Below are positions 29,816-40,275 of a stretch of DNA of 64,000 nucleotides, in pieces. The notes below the pieces were generated by a model. That model ran no database searches, was not told the origin of the DNA, and was given only the letters and a program-made list of their open reading frames with translations. The stretch is from Escherichia coli. GTDB lineage: Bacteria; Pseudomonadota; Gammaproteobacteria; Enterobacterales; Enterobacteriaceae. The position numbers and the translations under genes are program-made. How positions within the stretch are numbered: position 1 is the first letter of the stretch; every line of letters begins with the position of its first letter. The stretch lies in assembly GCF_013122565.1 (NCBI RefSeq), contig NZ_CP053258.1; one strand, given 5' to 3'.

Positions 29816-30161
29816 ACTTTCTTTAACGAAGCCGGAAAAATCCTAAATTCATTTATTATTTATTTTTTTACCGTTTCGCTTACCCCTGTCGAACGTCAAC
29901 TTACGTCATTTTTCCGCCCAACAGTAATATAATCAAACAAATTAGTCCCGCAACATAACACCAGTAAAATCAATAATTTTCTCTAAGTCACTTATTCTTC
30001 AGACAATTGTTAATATATCAAGAAGGTTCCTCATAATATATTTTCCCACTTTCTTCTCGTTACGCTTAATTTGACTAATTTTCATTAGCGACTAATTTTA
30101 ATGAGTGTCGACACACAACACTCATATTAATGAAACAATGCAACGCAACGGGAGAAATAAC

Positions 30162-30341
30162 ATGACCGAACATCGTGGTGGTTCAGGAAATTTCGCCGAA
30201 GACCGTGAGAAGGCATCCGACGCAGGCCGTAAAGGCGGTCAGCATAGCGGCGGTAATTTTAAAAATGATCCGCAACGCGCATCTGAAGCGGGTAAAAAAG
30301 GCGGTCAACAAAGCGGTGGTAATAAATCAGGCAAGTCCTGA
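30162..30341 (+). CDS. yciG: Small Gly/Lys-rich stress-type protein (59 aa)
   Basis: Internal ATG with SD ggagaaataac gives MTEHRGGSGNFAEDREKASDAGRKGGQHSGGN...; repeated KGGQxSGGN units. Confidence 0.85.
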   Translation: MTEHRGGSGNFAEDREKASDAGRKGGQHSGGNFKNDPQRASEAGKKGGQQSGGNKSGKS

Positions 30342-30426
30342 TTCACCGTTAATTATTAATATCAGCTGATAAAGATAATTGCATCTGCGGGCCGTATGGC
30401 TCGCAGTGATTTCATTGGAGAAAAAT

Positions 30427-30927
30427 ATGAATATGAAGACCATTGAAGATGTATTTATTCACCTGCTTTCAGATACCTACAGCGCAGAAAAACAATTAAC
30501 CCGTGCACTGGCAAAACTCGCTAGAGCAACATCAAACGAAAAATTAAGTCAGGCTTTTCATGCGCACCTCGAGGAAACTCATGGACAGATTGAACGAATT
30601 GATCAAGTTGTGGAATCTGAATCGAACCTGAAAATTAAGCGCATGAAATGTGTGGCAATGGAAGGTCTCATTGAAGAAGCTAATGAGGTCATCGAAAGCA
30701 CCGAGAAAAACGAAGTGCGTGATGCCGCACTGATTGCCGCTGCACAGAAAGTCGAGCACTATGAGATCGCCAGTTACGGGACCTTAGCGACGCTGGCTGA
30801 ACAATTAGGTTACCGTAAAGCAGCTAAACTTCTGAAAGAAACTCTTGAAGAAGAAAAGGCTACCGACATCAAACTGACTGATCTGGCCCTTAATAACGTA
30901 AATAAGAAAGCCGAAAATAAAGCCTGA
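30427..30927 (+). CDS. yciF: Ferritin-like DUF892-family stress protein
   Basis: Start at MNMKTIEDV (166 aa); helical ferritin-like sequence; first of the yciF-yciE pair. Confidence 0.88.
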   Translation: MNMKTIEDVFIHLLSDTYSAEKQLTRALAKLARATSNEKLSQAFHAHLEETHGQIERIDQVVESESNLKIKRMKCVAMEGLIEEANEVIESTEKNEVRDAALIAAAQKVEHYEIASYGTLATLAEQLGYRKAAKLLKETLEEEKATDIKLTDLALNNVNKKAENKA

Positions 30928-30972
30928 AATATGAACTTTAACTTTTAGTCATTTTATAAAGAGGACATTTTC

Positions 30973-31479
30973 ATGAATCGTATTGAACATTATCATGACT
31001 GGTTACGTGACGCCCACGCAATGGAAAAGCAAGCCGAATCAATGCTTGAATCCATGGCCAGCCGTATAGATAATTATCCTGAACTACGCGCTCGTATCGA
31101 ACAACATCTTAGTGAAACCAAAAACCAGATTGTTCAACTGGAAACTATTCTTGATCGTAATGACATTTCACGTTCAGTCATTAAAGATTCCATGAGTAAA
31201 ATGGCTGCGCTTGGGCAGTCAATCGGTGGTATCTTCCCTTCTGATGAAATAGTTAAAGGCTCTATTAGCGGATATGTCTTCGAGCAATTTGAAATCGCCT
31301 GTTACACCTCACTATTAGCAGCAGCAAAAAATGCCGGTGATACAGCTTCAATTCCAACCATCGAAGCGATTTTAAATGAGGAAAAGCAAATGGCCGACTG
31401 GCTGATTCAGCATATTCCGCAAACAACTGAGAAATTTTTAATTCGCTCTGAAACTGAAGGCGTAGAAGCGAAGAAATAA
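30973..31479 (+). CDS. yciE: Ferritin-like DUF892-family stress protein
   Basis: 168 aa, paralogous in character to yciF. Confidence 0.88.
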   Translation: MNRIEHYHDWLRDAHAMEKQAESMLESMASRIDNYPELRARIEQHLSETKNQIVQLETILDRNDISRSVIKDSMSKMAALGQSIGGIFPSDEIVKGSISGYVFEQFEIACYTSLLAAAKNAGDTASIPTIEAILNEEKQMADWLIQHIPQTTEKFLIRSETEGVEAKK

Positions 31480-31503
31480 TACCCTTTATGCCATGTCCTT
31501 ATT

Positions 31504-31530
31504 GACCCCGTATATTACGGGGTCGTTTTT
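31504..31530 (+). terminator. Intrinsic terminator after yciE
   Basis: gaccccgta-tat-tacggggtc followed by GTTTTT. Confidence 0.65.
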
Positions 31531-31538
31531 GTGCGGAA

Positions 31539-32177
31539 TTAAAAACGATATCCTGCTGAGAACATAAACACCCACGGATCGAGGCGTACGCTATCATGTT
31601 GCTGTGCACCGCCCAGCTTATAATTGGCGGTGGTATCGATATCCATGTACCAGACTGACATGTTAACCAACCAGTCACGGTTAATCAGATAATCAACCCC
31701 CACCTGCCCGGCAGCTCCCCAGGAATCTTTCAGACTGAGATCGGAAAGCCCCGCCTCTTTGCCATGATCGTTAAATCCATTATCAAAGAAGGTGGTGTAG
31801 TTAATACCTGCCCCAACGTAAGGACGGAATTTGCTGCTGGCATCACCAAAATACCACTGCGCCATCAGTGTTGGCGGCAGATGATGAACGGTTGCAATAT
31901 CGCCGGTCGCCCGGGTGCCGATTTTATGGCGGAACGGCGTCGCTGCCAGTAATTCCACACCAATGTTGTCGGTCGCCATATAAGTAAACGTCAAGCCCAG
32001 TTGCGTGTTATTGGTCACGCTGAATCCACCCAGACTTCCTAACGTACCACCAGCACCTTCTGTTGGACGTACGGTTGCAGACCCTGCACGCATAAAAAAT
32101 TCGCCTGCTTCATGCGCATAGGCACTGCCAGAGAGAAGAGTTGTTACTGCCAAAGCCGCCACTGTTAACTTTTTCAT
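31539..32177 (-). CDS. ompW: Outer-membrane protein W
   Basis: 212 aa; signal peptide ending AYA, beta-barrel alternation, C-terminal aromatic residue. Confidence 0.93.
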   Translation of the reverse strand: MKKLTVAALAVTTLLSGSAYAHEAGEFFMRAGSATVRPTEGAGGTLGSLGGFSVTNNTQLGLTFTYMATDNIGVELLAATPFRHKIGTRATGDIATVHHLPPTLMAQWYFGDASSKFRPYVGAGINYTTFFDNGFNDHGKEAGLSDLSLKDSWGAAGQVGVDYLINRDWLVNMSVWYMDIDTTANYKLGGAQQHDSVRLDPWVFMFSAGYRF

Positions 32178-32533
32178 ATCCGCTCCGTCGTTATGGTTAT
32201 AAAAACGTGACGAATATACCTACATTGGAGTAACAAATGATCCTACATAGATCACATTACATATGATAATTCACCCTTTATTGATCTGGATTAATTTAGA
32301 AGTTGTATTGAAAATCCTGGTTAATGTGATTTAAATCAATTTTTAAATATTTTCGCTACGCAAATATTAACTCGCTCGCCACTTGCCGCGGTTCGCCCAC
32401 GCCTGAAGGCCAGCAATTACCTCCGCTTTACAAAGATATGCTTTTCCATACAAGACCTGATGCTGCCACCCGAGGCTTAACCAGGGTACAATTGCCCGCT
32501 AATTAACACCTGCATAAAACTCAAGGAGAGTGC

Positions 32534-33277
32534 ATGTCTATCACGGCGCAGTCCGTATACCGTGACACCGGAAATTTCTTCCGTAATCAATTTATGACCA
32601 TTCTGTTGGTATCGTTGCTATGTGCGTTTATCACAGTGGTGTTAGGGCATGTTTTCTCACCCAGTGATGCACAGCTTGCGCAGCTCAATGACGGCGTGCC
32701 CGTTAGCGGCAGTAGTGGGTTGTTCGACCTGGTTCAGAATATGTCACCGGAACAGCAACAAATTTTGCTGCAGGCTTCAGCGGCGTCCACTTTTTCAGGA
32801 TTAATCGGTAACGCCATTCTCGCCGGAGGCGTAATATTAATTATCCAGCTGGTGTCTGCGGGTCAGAGAGTCAGTGCGCTGCGAGCTATTGGTGCCAGTG
32901 CGCCGATATTGCCAAAGTTATTTATTCTGATTTTTCTGACTACCCTTTTAGTACAGATTGGCATCATGCTGGTGGTCGTTCCGGGAATTATCATGGCCAT
33001 TTTACTGGCTCTGGCACCGGTGATGTTGGTACAGGACAAAATGGGCATTTTTGCCTCGATGCGTAGCAGTATGCGACTGACATGGGCGAATATGCGTCTG
33101 GTGGCGCCCGCAGTACTGAGCTGGTTGCTGGCAAAAACACTGTTGCTGCTTTTTGCCTCTTCTTTTGCCGCATTAACCCCGGAAATTGGTGCCGTACTGG
33201 CGAACACCTTGAGCAACCTGATCTCAGCCGTATTGCTCATCTATCTGTTCCGTCTGTATATGTTGATTCGCCAATAA
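32534..33277 (+). CDS. yciC: UPF0259-family inner-membrane protein
   Basis: 247 aa polytopic membrane protein. Confidence 0.85.
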
Positions 33278-33306
33278 CCTTAAGCATTTGATTACGGAAT
33301 CGTAAA

Positions 33307-33846
33307 ATGAAGCAGTTTCTTGATTTTTTACCGCTGGTTGTCTTTTTCGCGTTTTACAAAATTTATGACATCTATGCGGCTACTGCGGCGCTGATCGTCG
33401 CCACGGCGATTGTGCTTATCTATAGCTGGGTTCGCTTTCGTAAGGTTGAGAAGATGGCCCTGATCACTTTTGTTCTGGTGGTCGTCTTCGGTGGCTTGAC
33501 GCTGTTCTTCCACAATGATGAGTTTATTAAATGGAAGGTTACAGTCATTTATGCTCTGTTTGCGGGAGCCCTGTTAGTCAGCCAATGGGTGATGAAAAAG
33601 CCGCTAATTCAGCGGATGCTGGGTAAAGAACTCACGCTGCCGCAACCGGTATGGTCGAAGCTAAATCTGGCCTGGGCTGTTTTCTTTATCCTTTGCGGTC
33701 TGGCAAACATCTACATCGCATTCTGGCTGCCGCAAAATATTTGGGTCAACTTTAAAGTCTTTGGCCTGACCGCCCTTACCTTAATCTTCACATTGTTAAG
33801 CGGTATCTATATCTACCGCCACATGCCGCAGGAAGATAAATCCTAA
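33307..33846 (+). CDS. yciB: Inner-membrane protein YciB (intracellular septation protein family)
   Basis: 179 aa, five predicted TM helices. Confidence 0.88.
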
Positions 33847-33950
33847 CCAGACTGCCAGTCCTTCGGGGCTGGCGCTGTATCTCCTCTGTTCTCCTCAGGA
33901 AAATCATAGTAGCATCGCGCCTGTGATTTTCCTTTTAAGTCGGTTTTACC

Positions 33951-34349
33951 ATGTCTACAACACATAACGTCCCTCAGGGCGATCTTGTTTTACGTACTTT
34001 AGCCATGCCCGCCGATACCAATGCCAATGGTGACATCTTTGGTGGTTGGTTAATGTCACAAATGGATATTGGCGGCGCTATTCTGGCGAAAGAAATTGCC
34101 CACGGTCGCGTAGTGACTGTGCGGGTTGAAGGAATGACTTTCTTACGGCCGGTTGCGGTCGGCGATGTGGTGTGCTGCTATGCACGCTGTGTCCAGAAAG
34201 GGACGACATCGGTCAGCATTAATATTGAAGTGTGGGTGAAAAAAGTAGCGTCTGAACCAATCGGGCAACGCTATAAAGCGACAGAAGCATTATTTAAGTA
34301 TGTCGCGGTTGATCCTGAAGGAAAACCTCGCGCCTTACCTGTTGAGTAA
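33951..34349 (+). CDS. yciA: Acyl-CoA thioesterase (hotdog fold)
   Basis: 132 aa. Confidence 0.88.
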   Translation: MSTTHNVPQGDLVLRTLAMPADTNANGDIFGGWLMSQMDIGGAILAKEIAHGRVVTVRVEGMTFLRPVAVGDVVCCYARCVQKGTTSVSINIEVWVKKVASEPIGQRYKATEALFKYVAVDPEGKPRALPVE

Positions 34350-34354
34350 TAATC

Positions 34355-34378
34355 AAAAGCCTCCGGTCGGAGGCTTTT
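34355..34378. terminator. Bidirectional hairpin between convergent yciA and tonB
   Basis: aaaagcctcc-ggtc-ggaggctttt, perfect 10-bp stem. Confidence 0.65.
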
Positions 34379-34388
34379 GACTTTCTGC

Positions 34389-35108
34389 TTACTGAATTTC
34401 GGTGGTGCCGTTAATTTTAAACAGGATATTCACCACAATCCCACTGCCTGGCTTACCCGGCTCATAACGCCATCTGCGCATCGCATTTTTCACCTCACGC
34501 TCAAACATGTTCGCAGGCTTGGCTGAGAGGATTTGCACGTTATCCACGCGACCATCCGGCGTGACATCAAATTTAACTTTAACCTGCCCTTCAATGCGCA
34601 ATGCCTGTGCTCGTGCCGGATACTGCGGCTGATTACGGCTTAATGCGCGTGGTCCTGAAGCCACACTGGTAACCGGCTTGCTGGTTGCAGCCGTTGCCGT
34701 ACTTGATGTAGGGCGCGCGGGTGCCGTATTTTCAAACGGTGATGCCGGACGCGACTCTACGGGTTTGACATCGCGTTTTGGCTGCTCCTGTACCTTTTTC
34801 ACCGGCTTCGGTTTTGGCTTAGGTTTCGGCTTCGGCTTTTCAATGACCACCGGTGCTTCTTTTGGCGGTTCAGGAATCGGCTCAGGTTCCGGTTCTGGCT
34901 CTACCACCGGCTCCGGTGGCGGCTGAACGGCTTGTGGCGGTTCGAGATCAGCAGGCGCAACCATCGTAACAGAAATCGGCTGCGCAGGCGCAGGTAGTTC
35001 AATAACCTGATGTACCGAGGTATAGAGCAGACCCGCCACAACAGCACCATGAATGCAGACCGAAAGTAACGTCGGCCAGGGGAAGCGGCGAGGTAAATCA
35101 AGGGTCAT
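34389..35108 (-). CDS. tonB: Energy transducer TonB
   Basis: Start at internal Met giving 239 aa [11 protein letters not shown]...; (EP)n and (KP)n proline-rich spacer; C-terminal TonB domain. Confidence 0.93.
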
Positions 35109-35331
35109 TGAAGTCATAATCATTTCAGCAGAAAAACCAGGCCTCGATTTTAAATGCAAATAGCAATCATATTCAATAAGGCAAGACGATCAGGATCAGT
35201 GAAAATGTCATTTTTGGCGTAATTGACCTTACTTTATGCATGGTCTTAACAAAGACATCATCTTTCCGTTGCAGATCTTCGCCCTTTCAAATAACGTACT
35301 TTACAACTTTCCCGAACAAGGAGTTGTGCCC

Positions 35332-35628
35332 GTGTTGTATGTTATTTACGCTCAAGACAAAGCTGATAGCCTCGAAAAACGCCTTTCCGTTCGTCCGGCA
35401 CATTTAGCACGTTTACAGTTACTGCATGATGAAGGTCGTTTGTTGACAGCTGGTCCAATGCCAGCGGTAGACAGTAACGATCCAGGGGCTGCGGGATTTA
35501 CTGGCTCAACCGTTATTGCTGAATTTGAATCGCTGGAAGCAGCTCAGGCCTGGGCCGATGCTGACCCGTACGTAGCGGCAGGTGTCTATGAACACGTTTC
35601 AGTGAAACCATTTAAGAAAGTGTTCTGA
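35332..35628 (+). CDS. yciI: YciI-like small protein (98 aa)
   Basis: GTG start preceded by SD aaggag gives (M)[17 protein letters not shown]...; the ORF track extends further upstream. Confidence 0.85.
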
Positions 35629-35927
35629 GTAGAGATCCAATATTTAAGGGCACGGTTTTTGCAACCGTGTTCTTGTTTGGCCTTTCCTTATAGCCGGTCA
35701 GTGCATTCACCACCACAAGCAGATAATAACTTTATCTGTATTTCTTTATATGATGTGAGCATATTCAGGAAAAATGACCTTTCCTGAGGTACAGTTGCTC
35801 GCTCAAAACCTTTGATTACTGCGGATAAAGTCATCTACTATTGTTTAACACATTCACGCGCTGCATGTATGTTCGGAAAATGTGCACGCTAAGATAATTA
35901 AACAAAATTGTGGTTACAGAGGTATCA

Positions 35928-37181
35928 GTGAGTCACTGGGCTACATTCAAACAAACAGCAACAAATTTATGGGTGACCCTACGGCACGACATGCTCGCGC
36001 TGGCCGTCTTTTTAAATGGATTGCTTATTTTTAAAACAATCTATGGTATGTCGGTCAATTTGCTTGATATTTTCCATATTAAAGCATTTTCAGAGCTGGA
36101 TCTCTCCTTGCTGGCAAACGCCCCACTATTTATGCTCGGCGTATTTCTTGTCCTGAACTCCATTGGCTTACTGTTCCGGGCAAAGCTCGCATGGGCAATC
36201 AGTATCATTTTGTTGTTGATAGCGCTAATTTACACCCTGCATTTTTATCCGTGGCTGAAATTCAGTATTGGATTTTGCATTTTTACGCTGGTGTTTTTGC
36301 TGATACTGCGCAAAGACTTCTCCCACAGTAGCGCCGCAGCCGGGACAATTTTCGCATTTATTAGTTTCACGACGTTACTGTTTTACTCCACCTACGGTGC
36401 GCTTTATTTAAGCGAAGGTTTTAATCCGCGAATAGAAAGTTTGATGACCGCGTTCTATTTTTCAATAGAAACCATGTCAACCGTCGGCTATGGCGATATT
36501 GTCCCTGTTTCTGAGTCAGCACGATTGTTCACTATTTCGGTCATTATTTCCGGCATTACCGTTTTTGCCACCTCTATGACCTCAATTTTTGGTCCGCTTA
36601 TCCGCGGGGGATTCAACAAACTTGTAAAAGGAAACAATCATACAATGCATCGTAAAGATCATTTTATTGTTTGCGGGCATTCGATTCTCGCCATCAATAC
36701 GATTCTGCAACTGAATCAACGCGGACAAAACGTAACGGTTATCAGCAACTTGCCTGAAGATGATATCAAGCAACTTGAGCAACGCTTAGGCGATAACGCT
36801 GATGTTATCCCCGGTGACAGTAATGACAGTTCAGTATTAAAGAAAGCGGGAATCGATCGTTGCCGGGCCATTCTGGCGCTGAGTGATAACGATGCAGATA
36901 ACGCGTTTGTTGTACTCTCGGCAAAAGATATGAGCAGTGATGTTAAAACAGTTCTCGCCGTCAGTGATAGCAAAAACCTGAATAAGATTAAGATGGTACA
37001 TCCGGATATCATTCTCTCACCGCAACTGTTTGGCAGCGAAATTCTGGCGCGAGTTTTAAATGGTGAAGAGATTAATAATGATATGCTCGTTTCAATGTTG
37101 TTGAACTCCGGTCATGGCATTTTCAGCGATAACGATGAACAAGAAACGAAAGCTGACAGTAAAGAATCGGCGCAAAAATAG
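35928..37181 (+). CDS. kch: Six-TM K+ channel homologue with cytoplasmic RCK domain
   Basis: GTG start giving (M)SHWATFKQT... (417 aa); selectivity filter TVGYGD in TMSTVGYGDIVP; C-terminal Rossmann-type RCK domain (HFIVCGHS...). Confidence 0.9.
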   Translation: MSHWATFKQTATNLWVTLRHDMLALAVFLNGLLIFKTIYGMSVNLLDIFHIKAFSELDLSLLANAPLFMLGVFLVLNSIGLLFRAKLAWAISIILLLIALIYTLHFYPWLKFSIGFCIFTLVFLLILRKDFSHSSAAAGTIFAFISFTTLLFYSTYGALYLSEGFNPRIESLMTAFYFSIETMSTVGYGDIVPVSESARLFTISVIISGITVFATSMTSIFGPLIRGGFNKLVKGNNHTMHRKDHFIVCGHSILAINTILQLNQRGQNVTVISNLPEDDIKQLEQRLGDNADVIPGDSNDSSVLKKAGIDRCRAILALSDNDADNAFVVLSAKDMSSDVKTVLAVSDSKNLNKIKMVHPDIILSPQLFGSEILARVLNGEEINNDMLVSMLLNSGHGIFSDNDEQETKADSKESAQK

Positions 37182-37235
37182 AGTTTAAAGACGGAAGAGT
37201 AAACTTATTGGGCACCGCAATGGTGCCCAGTACAT

Positions 37236-37409
37236 TTAGATATTGTAGATCGCAAACAATAACGAGTTACGCTGTTTGTTTAGAATGCACTTCCTGATGC
37301 TGTGGATACGCATATTTCGGCGCGATTGCCCCTCAAGCCAACGCGATTTACGTCGGCTAGCCTGACGCTGCATGCGCCAGCGCCCCACTTCCGTTCTACT
37401 CCGCTTCAT
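37236..37409 (-). CDS. yciY: Small Arg-rich protein (57 aa)
   Basis: Internal Met of the 94-aa ORF gives MKRSRTEVGRWRMQRQASRRKSRWLEGQSRRNMRIHSIRK...; assignment from memory of a small gene between kch and cls. Confidence 0.5.
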   Translation of the reverse strand: MKRSRTEVGRWRMQRQASRRKSRWLEGQSRRNMRIHSIRKCILNKQRNSLLFAIYNI

Positions 37410-37551
37410 GTTAACTACTCTATGCAATAACAGAATGGTCATTATACCCCCGCCCCCGACGCTGACCAGTGCTTTTCCCGCGTTTTTATTTGCCAGATGA
37501 ATCCATATGCGTAAACTCATAACAATGCGCTTTCAAAAGGATTTCTAATCT

Positions 37552-39376
<1,825 letters not shown>

Positions 39377-39387
39377 CGCTTGCAATC

Positions 39388-39413
39388 GGATGTGACGCAG
39401 CTGCGTCACATCC
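39388..39413. terminator. Perfect 26-bp palindrome between convergent yciU and the channel ORF
   Basis: ggatgtgacgcag / ctgcgtcacatcc, exact reverse complements; starts 12 nt after the yciU stop and contains the TGA stop of the minus-strand channel ORF; no T-run on either side, so terminator function is inferred. Confidence 0.5.
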
Positions 39414-40275
39414 GCTCTTCATTTTCCACATCTACCTTTTCCCTCCCCAGTTCATTGCCACAAATACGACAATACTTCGCATCCTGTGCATGATTTTGGG
39501 TATTGCATTTAGGACAACAGAGAAGTTTTTTAGTCTGTTCAAGTTCGCTGGTGAGTTGCGCAGTAATAATCCCCGTCGGAATTGCAATGACTGAGTAGCC
39601 AATTAAGATTAATACTGAGGCCACCATCCTTCCTGCCTCTGTATGCGGCGTAATATCCCCATATCCAACGGTAGTCACAGTCACTATCGCCCAGTAAACC
39701 GCTGTACCCAACGAGTTAAATCCGTTTGATGCGCCTTCTATAGCGTACATTAACGCCCCAGCGACGATCATCACAATTGCAATAAATGCATAAAAAAGAA
39801 TCAACTGATGTCGGGCATTTTTTATCGCCCGCCATAAACTGTTTAAGGCAGGCATAAAGCGAAGCAGGCGCAAAATTCGCAACGCGCGAATAGCTCTCAT
39901 CGCTCGCCAGGCAAATAAATAAGTAAAACCAATTTCAGGCCATAGCCACATAACATACAGCGGCAAAATGGTGGTCAGATCGATAATTCCCCAAAAGCTA
40001 AAAACATAACTTACCGGATTCGGCCAGCTTAATATCCGCAGGAAATACTCGATGGTGAAAATTAAGGTAAAGAAGAGTTCCACCCAGACAAAGATATGCC
40101 ATTCGTCGTAGGTTAACTGAAATTGCGATCCAATACCGGATTCTATGAAAACAACGCCAACACTTAACAATGCGAGAAAACCAAACAGCGCCTCGCATCG
40201 TCTACCGGTTTTTGTATGCCGATCAAAAAGAAAATGATAAAACCGCTGACGATAGCCTGAAAGTTGTCCTGTCAC
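39406..40275 (-). CDS. Kv-type voltage-gated K+ channel homologue (6 TM, charged S4, TVGYGD filter) with C-terminal Cys4 zinc-ribbon tail
   Basis: 289 aa; GTG start 5 nt after SD GGGAGG; S4 segment RAMRAIRALRILRLLRF with Arg at every third position; acidic countercharges in S2 and S3; pore AIVTVTTVGYGDITP; tail CCPKC...CRIC; not remembered at this position in K-12. Confidence 0.8.
   Translation of the reverse strand: MTGQLSGYRQRFYHFLFDRHTKTGRRCEALFGFLALLSVGVVFIESGIGSQFQLTYDEWHIFVWVELFFTLIFTIEYFLRILSWPNPVSYVFSFWGIIDLTTILPLYVMWLWPEIGFTYLFAWRAMRAIRALRILRLLRFMPALNSLWRAIKNARHQLILFYAFIAIVMIVAGALMYAIEGASNGFNSLGTAVYWAIVTVTTVGYGDITPHTEAGRMVASVLILIGYSVIAIPTGIITAQLTSELEQTKKLLCCPKCNTQNHAQDAKYCRICGNELGREKVDVENEERM

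Follow-up and report, generated by a model that had tools for sequence, protein, structure and literature searches.

Rare whole-unit length alleles in the X-Pro repeats of the Escherichia coli tonB spacer, probably produced by recurrent slippage

The two dipeptide repeats in the proline-rich spacer of E. coli TonB differ in copy number between strains by whole units, all multiples of 6 bp: the basic tract occurs as (KP)2, (KP)4, (KP)5, (KP)6, and (KP)7, and the acidic tract as (EP)4 and (EP)5. This variation is rare, seen in 2.4% of the records surveyed for KP and in 1 of 5,423 for EP, and conservation of (EP)4/(KP)6 dominates. We consider it highly probable that the spacer acts as a rod, that its repeats gain and lose units by recurrent slippage, and that the resulting changes in length are near-neutral. 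Such variation is ordinary, already-known biology, to which the allele frequencies for E. coli add a little descriptive detail.

The gene was studied in a window of 64 kb, the whole stretch of 64,000 nucleotides of E. coli DNA (contig NZ_CP053258.1) that was analysed. It begins with the ATG at 35108, encodes 239 aa plus the stop, and lies inside a minus-strand open reading frame (ORF) of 34389..35159. Its product matched the curated NCBIfam equivalog NF008083 (‘TonB system transport protein TonB’) from end to end (positions 1–239 of 239) and above the cutoff (E = 1.1e-162; 539.5 bits against 448 bits). A match to the ‘polyproline region’ of TonB, Pfam PF16031 (TonB_N, E = 1.3e-37), together with (EP)4-IPEPP and (KP)6 in the translation, indicates that the proline-rich domain II with its acidic and basic X-Pro segments is present. 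A C-terminal TonB domain was recognised by both Pfam PF03544 (TonB_C, E = 5.8e-20) and TIGR01352 (73.4 bits against a cutoff of 27.1 bits), and on these family matches it would be the Ton box-binding TonB domain. The N-terminal signal anchor carries the SHLS motif (...LLS16VCIH20GAVVAGL27LYTS31...), corresponding to the S16/H20/L27/S31 motif given for the TonB anchor in PMC12204202. The features referred to below are as follows, in window positions.

34389..35108, minus strand: tonB coding sequence, with N-terminal membrane anchor, proline-rich spacer, and C-terminal domain (ORF list, NF008083, Pfam TonB_N and TonB_C).
34878..34901, minus strand: (EP)4 tract, aa 70–77, GAG CCA GAA CCG GAA CCT GAG CCG (translation; lag-6 identity).
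34885..34895, minus strand: GAACCGGAACC, the longest perfect period-6 stretch of the EP tract, 11 bp, and the site of the sole EP expansion seen (+GAACCG).
34863..34877, minus strand: IPEPP, aa 78–82, continuing the acidic X-Pro segment (translation).
34839..34862, minus strand: KEAPVVIE linker, aa 83–90, between the acidic and basic X-Pro segments (translation).
34803..34838, minus strand: (KP)6 tract, aa 91–102, AAG CCG AAG CCG AAA CCT AAG CCA AAA CCG AAG CCG (Tandem Repeats Finder).
34825..34838, minus strand: AAGCCGAAGCCGAA, the sole perfect tandem in the KP tract, 14 bp with period 6, and the site of the +1 ((KP)7) and −1 ((KP)5) changes.
34678..34926, plus strand: Gly/Ser/Phe-rich ORF of 82 aa with a TTG start (ORF list), an antisense by-product of the tonB Pro/Glu/Lys codons.

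Matching E. coli records annotate the gene as tonB, and its neighbours (yciB, yciA, yciI, and kch) agree with those on annotated E. coli chromosomes; the K-12 genomic order yciA-tonB-yciI-kch is retained in the window. K-12 TonB differs from the window protein at two residues (A51T and P133L in K-12), and the DNA of the two is 97.3% identical across 301 bp around the tracts, the differences being synonymous and a few replacement SNPs. The spacer described for E. coli K-12 and Salmonella TonB, (EP)4-IPEPP ... (KP)6, is the same as that of the window, with no structural difference. Among 5,426 complete RefSeq genomes, the best E. coli match to positions 30000..40000 of the window was 98.7% identical over these 10 kb and none was identical; at least 80% of this interval was covered in one place by only 3,112 of them, and the window would accordingly stem from a somewhat divergent E. 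coli or Shigella-group strain outside this set. The closest complete RefSeq E. coli match to the 301 bp around the tracts reached 99.3%. Upstream of the ATG, the tonB frame stays open (35109..35159, minus strand) to a TTG at 35159, which corresponds to 256 aa, and some public gene calls (P0004) use an upstream start that gives a TonB of 244 aa.

The first-pass annotation, made from the sequence of the window, had placed (EP)n and (KP)n tracts encoded by short tandem DNA repeats at 34795–34905, and this was confirmed, the interval bracketing both tracts and the KEAPVVIE linker. Tandem Repeats Finder reported the KP tract at 34803–34838 with a period of 6, 6.0 copies, 76% matches, and a score of 44, whereas the EP tract was not reported at a minimum score of 30. 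The lag-6 identity of the KP tract, 0.767, was the top value of all 36-bp windows in the 64 kb (mean 0.264, sd 0.086), and that of the EP tract, 0.722, was reached by 17 of the 63,976 24-bp windows. Both tracts therefore consist of head-to-tail repeated DNA units, as judged by Tandem Repeats Finder for KP and by lag-6 identity alone for EP, and both are far above chance yet imperfect. Between them, the IPEPP segment showed synonymous SNPs only (ATT/ATC, CCT/CCC) among alleles, and the length of the KEAPVVIE linker was constant in all aligned alleles.

The imperfection of the repeats lies in their mixed synonymous codons. We compared the observed tracts with codon-randomised versions, using an approximate E. 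coli codon usage (our own figures). Lag-6 identity was at or below the observed value in 21% of the simulations for KP and 17% for EP, and the longest perfect stretch was no longer than the observed one in 51% and 46%, respectively. Relative to random synonymous codon choice, perfect repeats are thus neither avoided nor enriched in the EP and KP tracts. The idea that mixed codons had been selected to suppress slippage was rejected, because random choice gives similar values.

The repeats also leave a trace on the opposite strand, in the form of the 82-aa ORF, which the first-pass annotation had regarded as an artefact. That this ORF is a real overlapping gene is extremely improbable. In all orthologs examined from other species, the plus-strand frame had no stop over the tract, which might speak for a gene; however, this frame shares its third codon positions with tonB and reads CCN, GAR, and AAR from the complementary strand as Gly, Phe, Leu, and Ser, so that stops cannot arise over the tract and the openness is explained by the antisense of the tonB codons. 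The ORF had no Pfam or NCBIfam match, its start codon (TTG, GTG, ATG, or none), start position, and length (0–130 aa) were not conserved across species, its product is of low complexity, and tract indels alter its length freely. A real antisense gene was rejected on the missing family match and the unconserved start and length, and the artefact reading was borne out.

Tract length was surveyed in 5,423 E. coli complete-genome records (5,422 genomes). The queries were 76–106 bp long, sized so that one 6-bp unit shifts identity across the 95% band; a 301-bp megablast query was dropped because its identity bands cannot tell 6-bp indels from SNPs. A 100-bp query with the (KP)6 length of the window matched 5,302 records at 95% or more (7 of these partially) and 121 records at 90–95%. 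The natural (KP)7 query matched 118 records at 99% or more, the synthetic (KP)5 query found 3 full-length carriers, and the natural (KP)2 and synthetic (KP)4 queries found 5 and 2 carriers, respectively. These counts reconcile exactly (118 + 3 = 121; 5 + 2 = 7) and give the following length classes.

(KP)2: 5 of 5,423 records.
(KP)4: 2 of 5,423 records.
(KP)5: 3 of 5,423 records.
(KP)6: about 5,295 of 5,423 records (97.6%).
(KP)7: 118 of 5,423 records (2.2%).

KP alleles longer than (KP)7 were not detected with these queries; the 80–90% band of the (KP)6 query was empty, and all seven partial matches were (KP)2 or (KP)4. With the EP query, 7 of the 5,423 records fell in the 90–95% band. One of them, strain KE48, carries (EP)5, the only such record among the 5,423, and the other six probably represent (EP)4 alleles that have diverged in sequence. 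No carrier of (EP)3 was found among the 5,423 E. coli records with a synthetic query. The first-pass annotation had suggested that the tracts could vary in length between strains and had proposed that repeat number be compared across strains. With that comparison made, five KP length classes and one (EP)5 in 5,423 records support the suggestion, and tract length is not identical in all related genomes. The match lists for (KP)7 and (KP)2 showed no visible association with host or source.

Ten TonB variants were also looked up by exact protein match in a larger public collection. The (KP)2, (KP)5, and (KP)4 proteins were found there on 180, 60, and 43 contigs, respectively, and the other seven variants were absent, leaving these three counts alone as usable. 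The 244-aa upstream start in public gene calls may be the reason why exact look-ups of 239-aa proteins failed. It is hardly credible that mistakes in the sequencing or assembly of a low-complexity region account for the length variants. Repeats are error-prone on some long-read platforms, and odd assemblies occur among the records, such as that of KE48 with its tonB on a 385-kb plasmid-labelled record; against this, every variant is a change of exactly 6 bp or a multiple of it and leaves the frame intact, laboratories in different countries have assembled the same alleles independently, and exact variant proteins lie on 43–180 contigs. Plasmid-labelled records accounted for 13 tonB matches in the collection of complete-genome records. 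The record with the KE48 (EP)5 allele (NZ_CP141085.1, ‘plasmid unnamed1’, 385,579 bp) bears the chromosomal block kch-yciI-tonB-yciA-yciB, and the plasmid-labelled tonB records are probably mislabelled or misassembled chromosomal DNA.

Codon-level allele alignments placed the indels within the tracts. The (KP)7 allele has a third AAGCCG copy at the sole perfect tandem of the KP tract, AAGCCGAAGCCG, and in (KP)5, of which there are two kinds, this tandem is shorter by one AAGCCG; one of the two kinds lies on a background without Q107 and has an additional CCT>CCA change. The 24 bp missing from the (KP)2 allele were lost between a pair of CCGAAGCCG direct repeats. The two (KP)4 alleles have unlike internal sequences (...AAA CCG AAG CCG versus ...AAA CCT AAG CCG) and therefore go back to two distinct deletions of 12 bp, each between AAACC or AAGCC repeats. 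The (EP)5 allele of KE48 has gained one GAACCG at GAACCGGAACC and reads GAA CCG GAA CCG GAA CCT. All 17 alleles examined are intact ORFs of 231–241 aa, and slippage appears to be confined to short perfect stretches.

Other length differences in TonB were seen beside these. One 240-aa E. coli TonB (P0013), found on one contig only, has a single-residue insertion in the basic tract, a non-unit change. Just downstream of the KP tract, at 34789..34791 (V106/Q107), a polymorphism replaces GTA CAG GAG with GTG GAG and yields a TonB of 238 aa. This shorter span lacking Q107 was present in 12 of 60 evenly spaced matches, or roughly a fifth of E. coli genomes, and the window carries the long form. In strain M1/5, 36 bp are absent at 34716..34751 (aa 120–131), which gives a TonB of 226 aa that is annotated as intact; as read from the alignment, this deletion sits between the imperfect direct repeats CGCGTCCGGCATCA and CGCGCCCGACATCA. 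The 3-bp Q107 difference and the 36-bp M1/5 difference were rejected as dipeptide-repeat events, since both fall outside the tracts.

To follow the alleles on their backgrounds, haplotypes were compared over about 1.1 kb (tonB and flanks) in 6 of the 118 (KP)7 carriers, picked for diverse sources. The six carriers fell into five haplotypes, 8–18 SNPs apart over about 1.1 kb. The LHM10-1 (KP)7 allele and the K-12 (KP)6 allele differ by 1 SNP, compared with 16 SNPs between LHM10-1 and the common (KP)7 haplotype. The (KP)7 allele of CFS3313 is 3 SNPs from a haplotype that also bears (KP)5 (CAU16175, PEC240) and (KP)2 (7_33_46A), these three strains being identical to one another outside the tract. 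A single SNP separates the (EP)5 allele from a normal (EP)4 allele, and further (KP)5 and (KP)4 backgrounds were present among protein cluster members. Length change thus appears to have recurred independently (homoplasy), with (KP)7 on five SNP haplotypes and two structures each of (KP)5 and (KP)4. As 6 of the 118 (KP)7 carriers were haplotyped, most of the carriers could belong to one clone.

The tracts had been described by the first-pass annotation as prone to slippage, and the whole 6-bp changes at the perfect tandem or at short direct repeats, together with the several SNP backgrounds of (KP)7, lend support to this as a reading of the sequences. The occurrence of (KP)7 on several backgrounds, one of them a single SNP from K-12 (KP)6, suggests that slippage recurs. 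We infer slippage as the mutational mechanism from the indel pattern, short-patch recombination being the alternative. In its full form, this alternative holds that each length variant arose once and then spread by homologous recombination, the tract itself not being mutable. It would fit the identical tract sequence in all (KP)7 alleles examined, although slippage at one perfect tandem would always give the same sequence, and it would also fit the strong intragenic recombination in K. pneumoniae tonB described in a passage of PMC2656620 and the small share of (KP)7 carriers haplotyped (6/118). We nevertheless regard it as unlikely. At least nine structurally or contextually distinct events are on hand (two (KP)5, two (KP)4, (KP)2, (EP)5, and (KP)7 on five haplotypes), and, with LHM10-1 only 1 SNP from K-12 in 1.1 kb, an imported patch would have to be very short, under about 215 bp as set by the nearest distinguishing SNPs.

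Recurrent slippage would operate in the following way. In the proline-rich spacer of TonB, the oppositely charged (EP)4-IPEPP and (KP)6 segments would form an extended rod that allows the C-terminal domain to reach outer-membrane transporters. With a 6-bp unit for each dipeptide, the DNA would take the form of an imperfect tandem repeat, and replication slippage would now and then add or remove one unit where neighbouring units share their codons, at AAGCCGAAGCCG in KP and at GAACCGGAACC in EP. Short direct repeats in the tract (CCGAAGCCG, AAACC, AAGCC) may mediate the rarer 12- and 24-bp deletions. The changes that survive would be in-frame whole dipeptides that recur on different strain backgrounds and are still rare; their rarity may result from the very short perfect repeats, from weak stabilising selection on spacer length, or from both.

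A polyproline-II helix rises by about 0.31 nm per residue. At this value, the gain or loss of one KP unit would amount to about 0.6 nm of rod, and the rod of (KP)2, the natural allele furthest from (KP)6, would be about 2.5 nm shorter. In excerpts of PMC5413942, PMC9022066, and PMC12204202, the spacer is presented as an extended polyproline-II rod with which the C-terminal domain can span the distance to the outer membrane. According to the passage of PMC3005593 on this region, TonB residues 66–100 can be deleted with little effect, activity being kept unless the periplasm is expanded. The first-pass annotation had proposed that a change in tract length alters the periplasmic span of TonB. This stands geometrically; an effect on function of gaining or losing 1 to 4 units is unlikely, because the whole 66–100 region is, in that account, dispensable unless the periplasm is expanded. 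Natural length variants are most likely near-neutral for TonB function.

It is very unlikely, by contrast, that the variants are adaptive, with the reach of TonB tuned to envelope geometry or with resistance gained to TonB-dependent colicins or phages. Persistence and clonal spread of the variants might be read in this way, given (KP)7 in 2.2% of complete genomes and the (KP)2 protein on 180 contigs, as might the wide variation of domain II length across Proteobacteria, which may track periplasm width (PMC12204202), and the effect that loss of region 66–100 has once the periplasm is expanded (passage in PMC3005593). Yet the same passage reports whole-region deletion to be without effect in normal conditions, the changes amount to 2–8 residues of a spacer put at roughly 118 residues in an excerpt of PMC5413942, the (KP)7 and (KP)2 match lists lack any host or source association, and 97.6% of records keep (KP)6. 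With as little probability, spacer length might be a weakly selected, lineage-specific trait, (KP)7 and (KP)2 tuning the reach or stiffness of the transducer to envelope width or cutting colicin or phage killing. If that were true, the near-universal (KP)6 would reflect stabilising selection and not low mutability.

Beyond E. coli, 26 Enterobacterales orthologs had a longest EP run of 2–6 units and a longest KP run of 3–8 units in proteins of 236–245 aa. Three Citrobacter species have exactly (EP)4/(KP)6, and E. albertii has (EP)3/(KP)6. Spacer length drifts by units between genera and is nearly constant within and near E. coli. The exact (EP)4/(KP)6 from E. coli through Citrobacter could mean that length is selected, in which case the variants would perhaps not be neutral. 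In SCPM-O-B-8794 (NZ_JAATUR010000049.1, labelled E. coli), tonB differs from that of the window at 54 of 720 sites (7.5%), (EP)4/(KP)6 is kept, and the protein is nearly identical; this strain might be a member of a cryptic Escherichia lineage.

The X-Pro repeats of E. coli and Salmonella TonB were described in 1986–1990 (Evans et al., 1986; Brewer et al., 1990; also Kohler et al., 2010; as cited in passages of PMC6821194, PMC12204202, and PMC5413942). In a survey of 235 K. pneumoniae isolates (Brisse et al., 2009; PMC2656620), the portion of the paper on tonB records one 2-codon insertion, two 2-codon deletions, and one 4-codon deletion, and the corresponding passage reports no indels in six other K. 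pneumoniae MLST genes. These sizes (+2, −2, and −4 codons) match those of the E. coli events (+2, −2, −4, and −8 codons); the indels are from another species, and we place them in the X-Pro repeats by inference. VNTR-like intragenic repeats (Verstrepen et al., 2005, as cited in a passage of PMC6821194) likewise gain and lose whole units in frame, as the tonB repeats do on independent backgrounds and with a change in spacer length. Unlike them, the E. coli tonB repeats are imperfect and very short (no more than 2.3 perfect units), their variation is about 2% and narrow in range, and there is no evidence of functional variability.

With the phase-variable contingency loci of Haemophilus and Neisseria, tonB would have in common slipped-strand mispairing at short repeats in a coding region. 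It differs from them in that its unit is 6 bp, the frame never shifts, and long perfect arrays are absent. On/off switching by a shift of frame or promoter spacing was not found, the variant alleles all being full-length ORFs of 231–241 aa, and phase variation was rejected on the 6-bp unit and the in-frame state of all alleles.

The significance of these findings is small, as the X-Pro repeats and their structural role have been known since the 1980s, Klebsiella indels are on record, and the region is dispensable under normal conditions, according to the source passages cited above. For practical purposes, E. coli tonB has in-frame length alleles, and typing schemes, aligners, and annotation pipelines should expect proteins of 231–241 aa and not flag them as errors. 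The natural series from (KP)2 to (KP)7 is a ready allelic set for in vivo tests of spacer length. That the events fall exactly on very short perfect repeats suggests that the heterogeneity of synonymous codons, which does not exceed that expected from random codon choice, limits slippage in dipeptide tracts.
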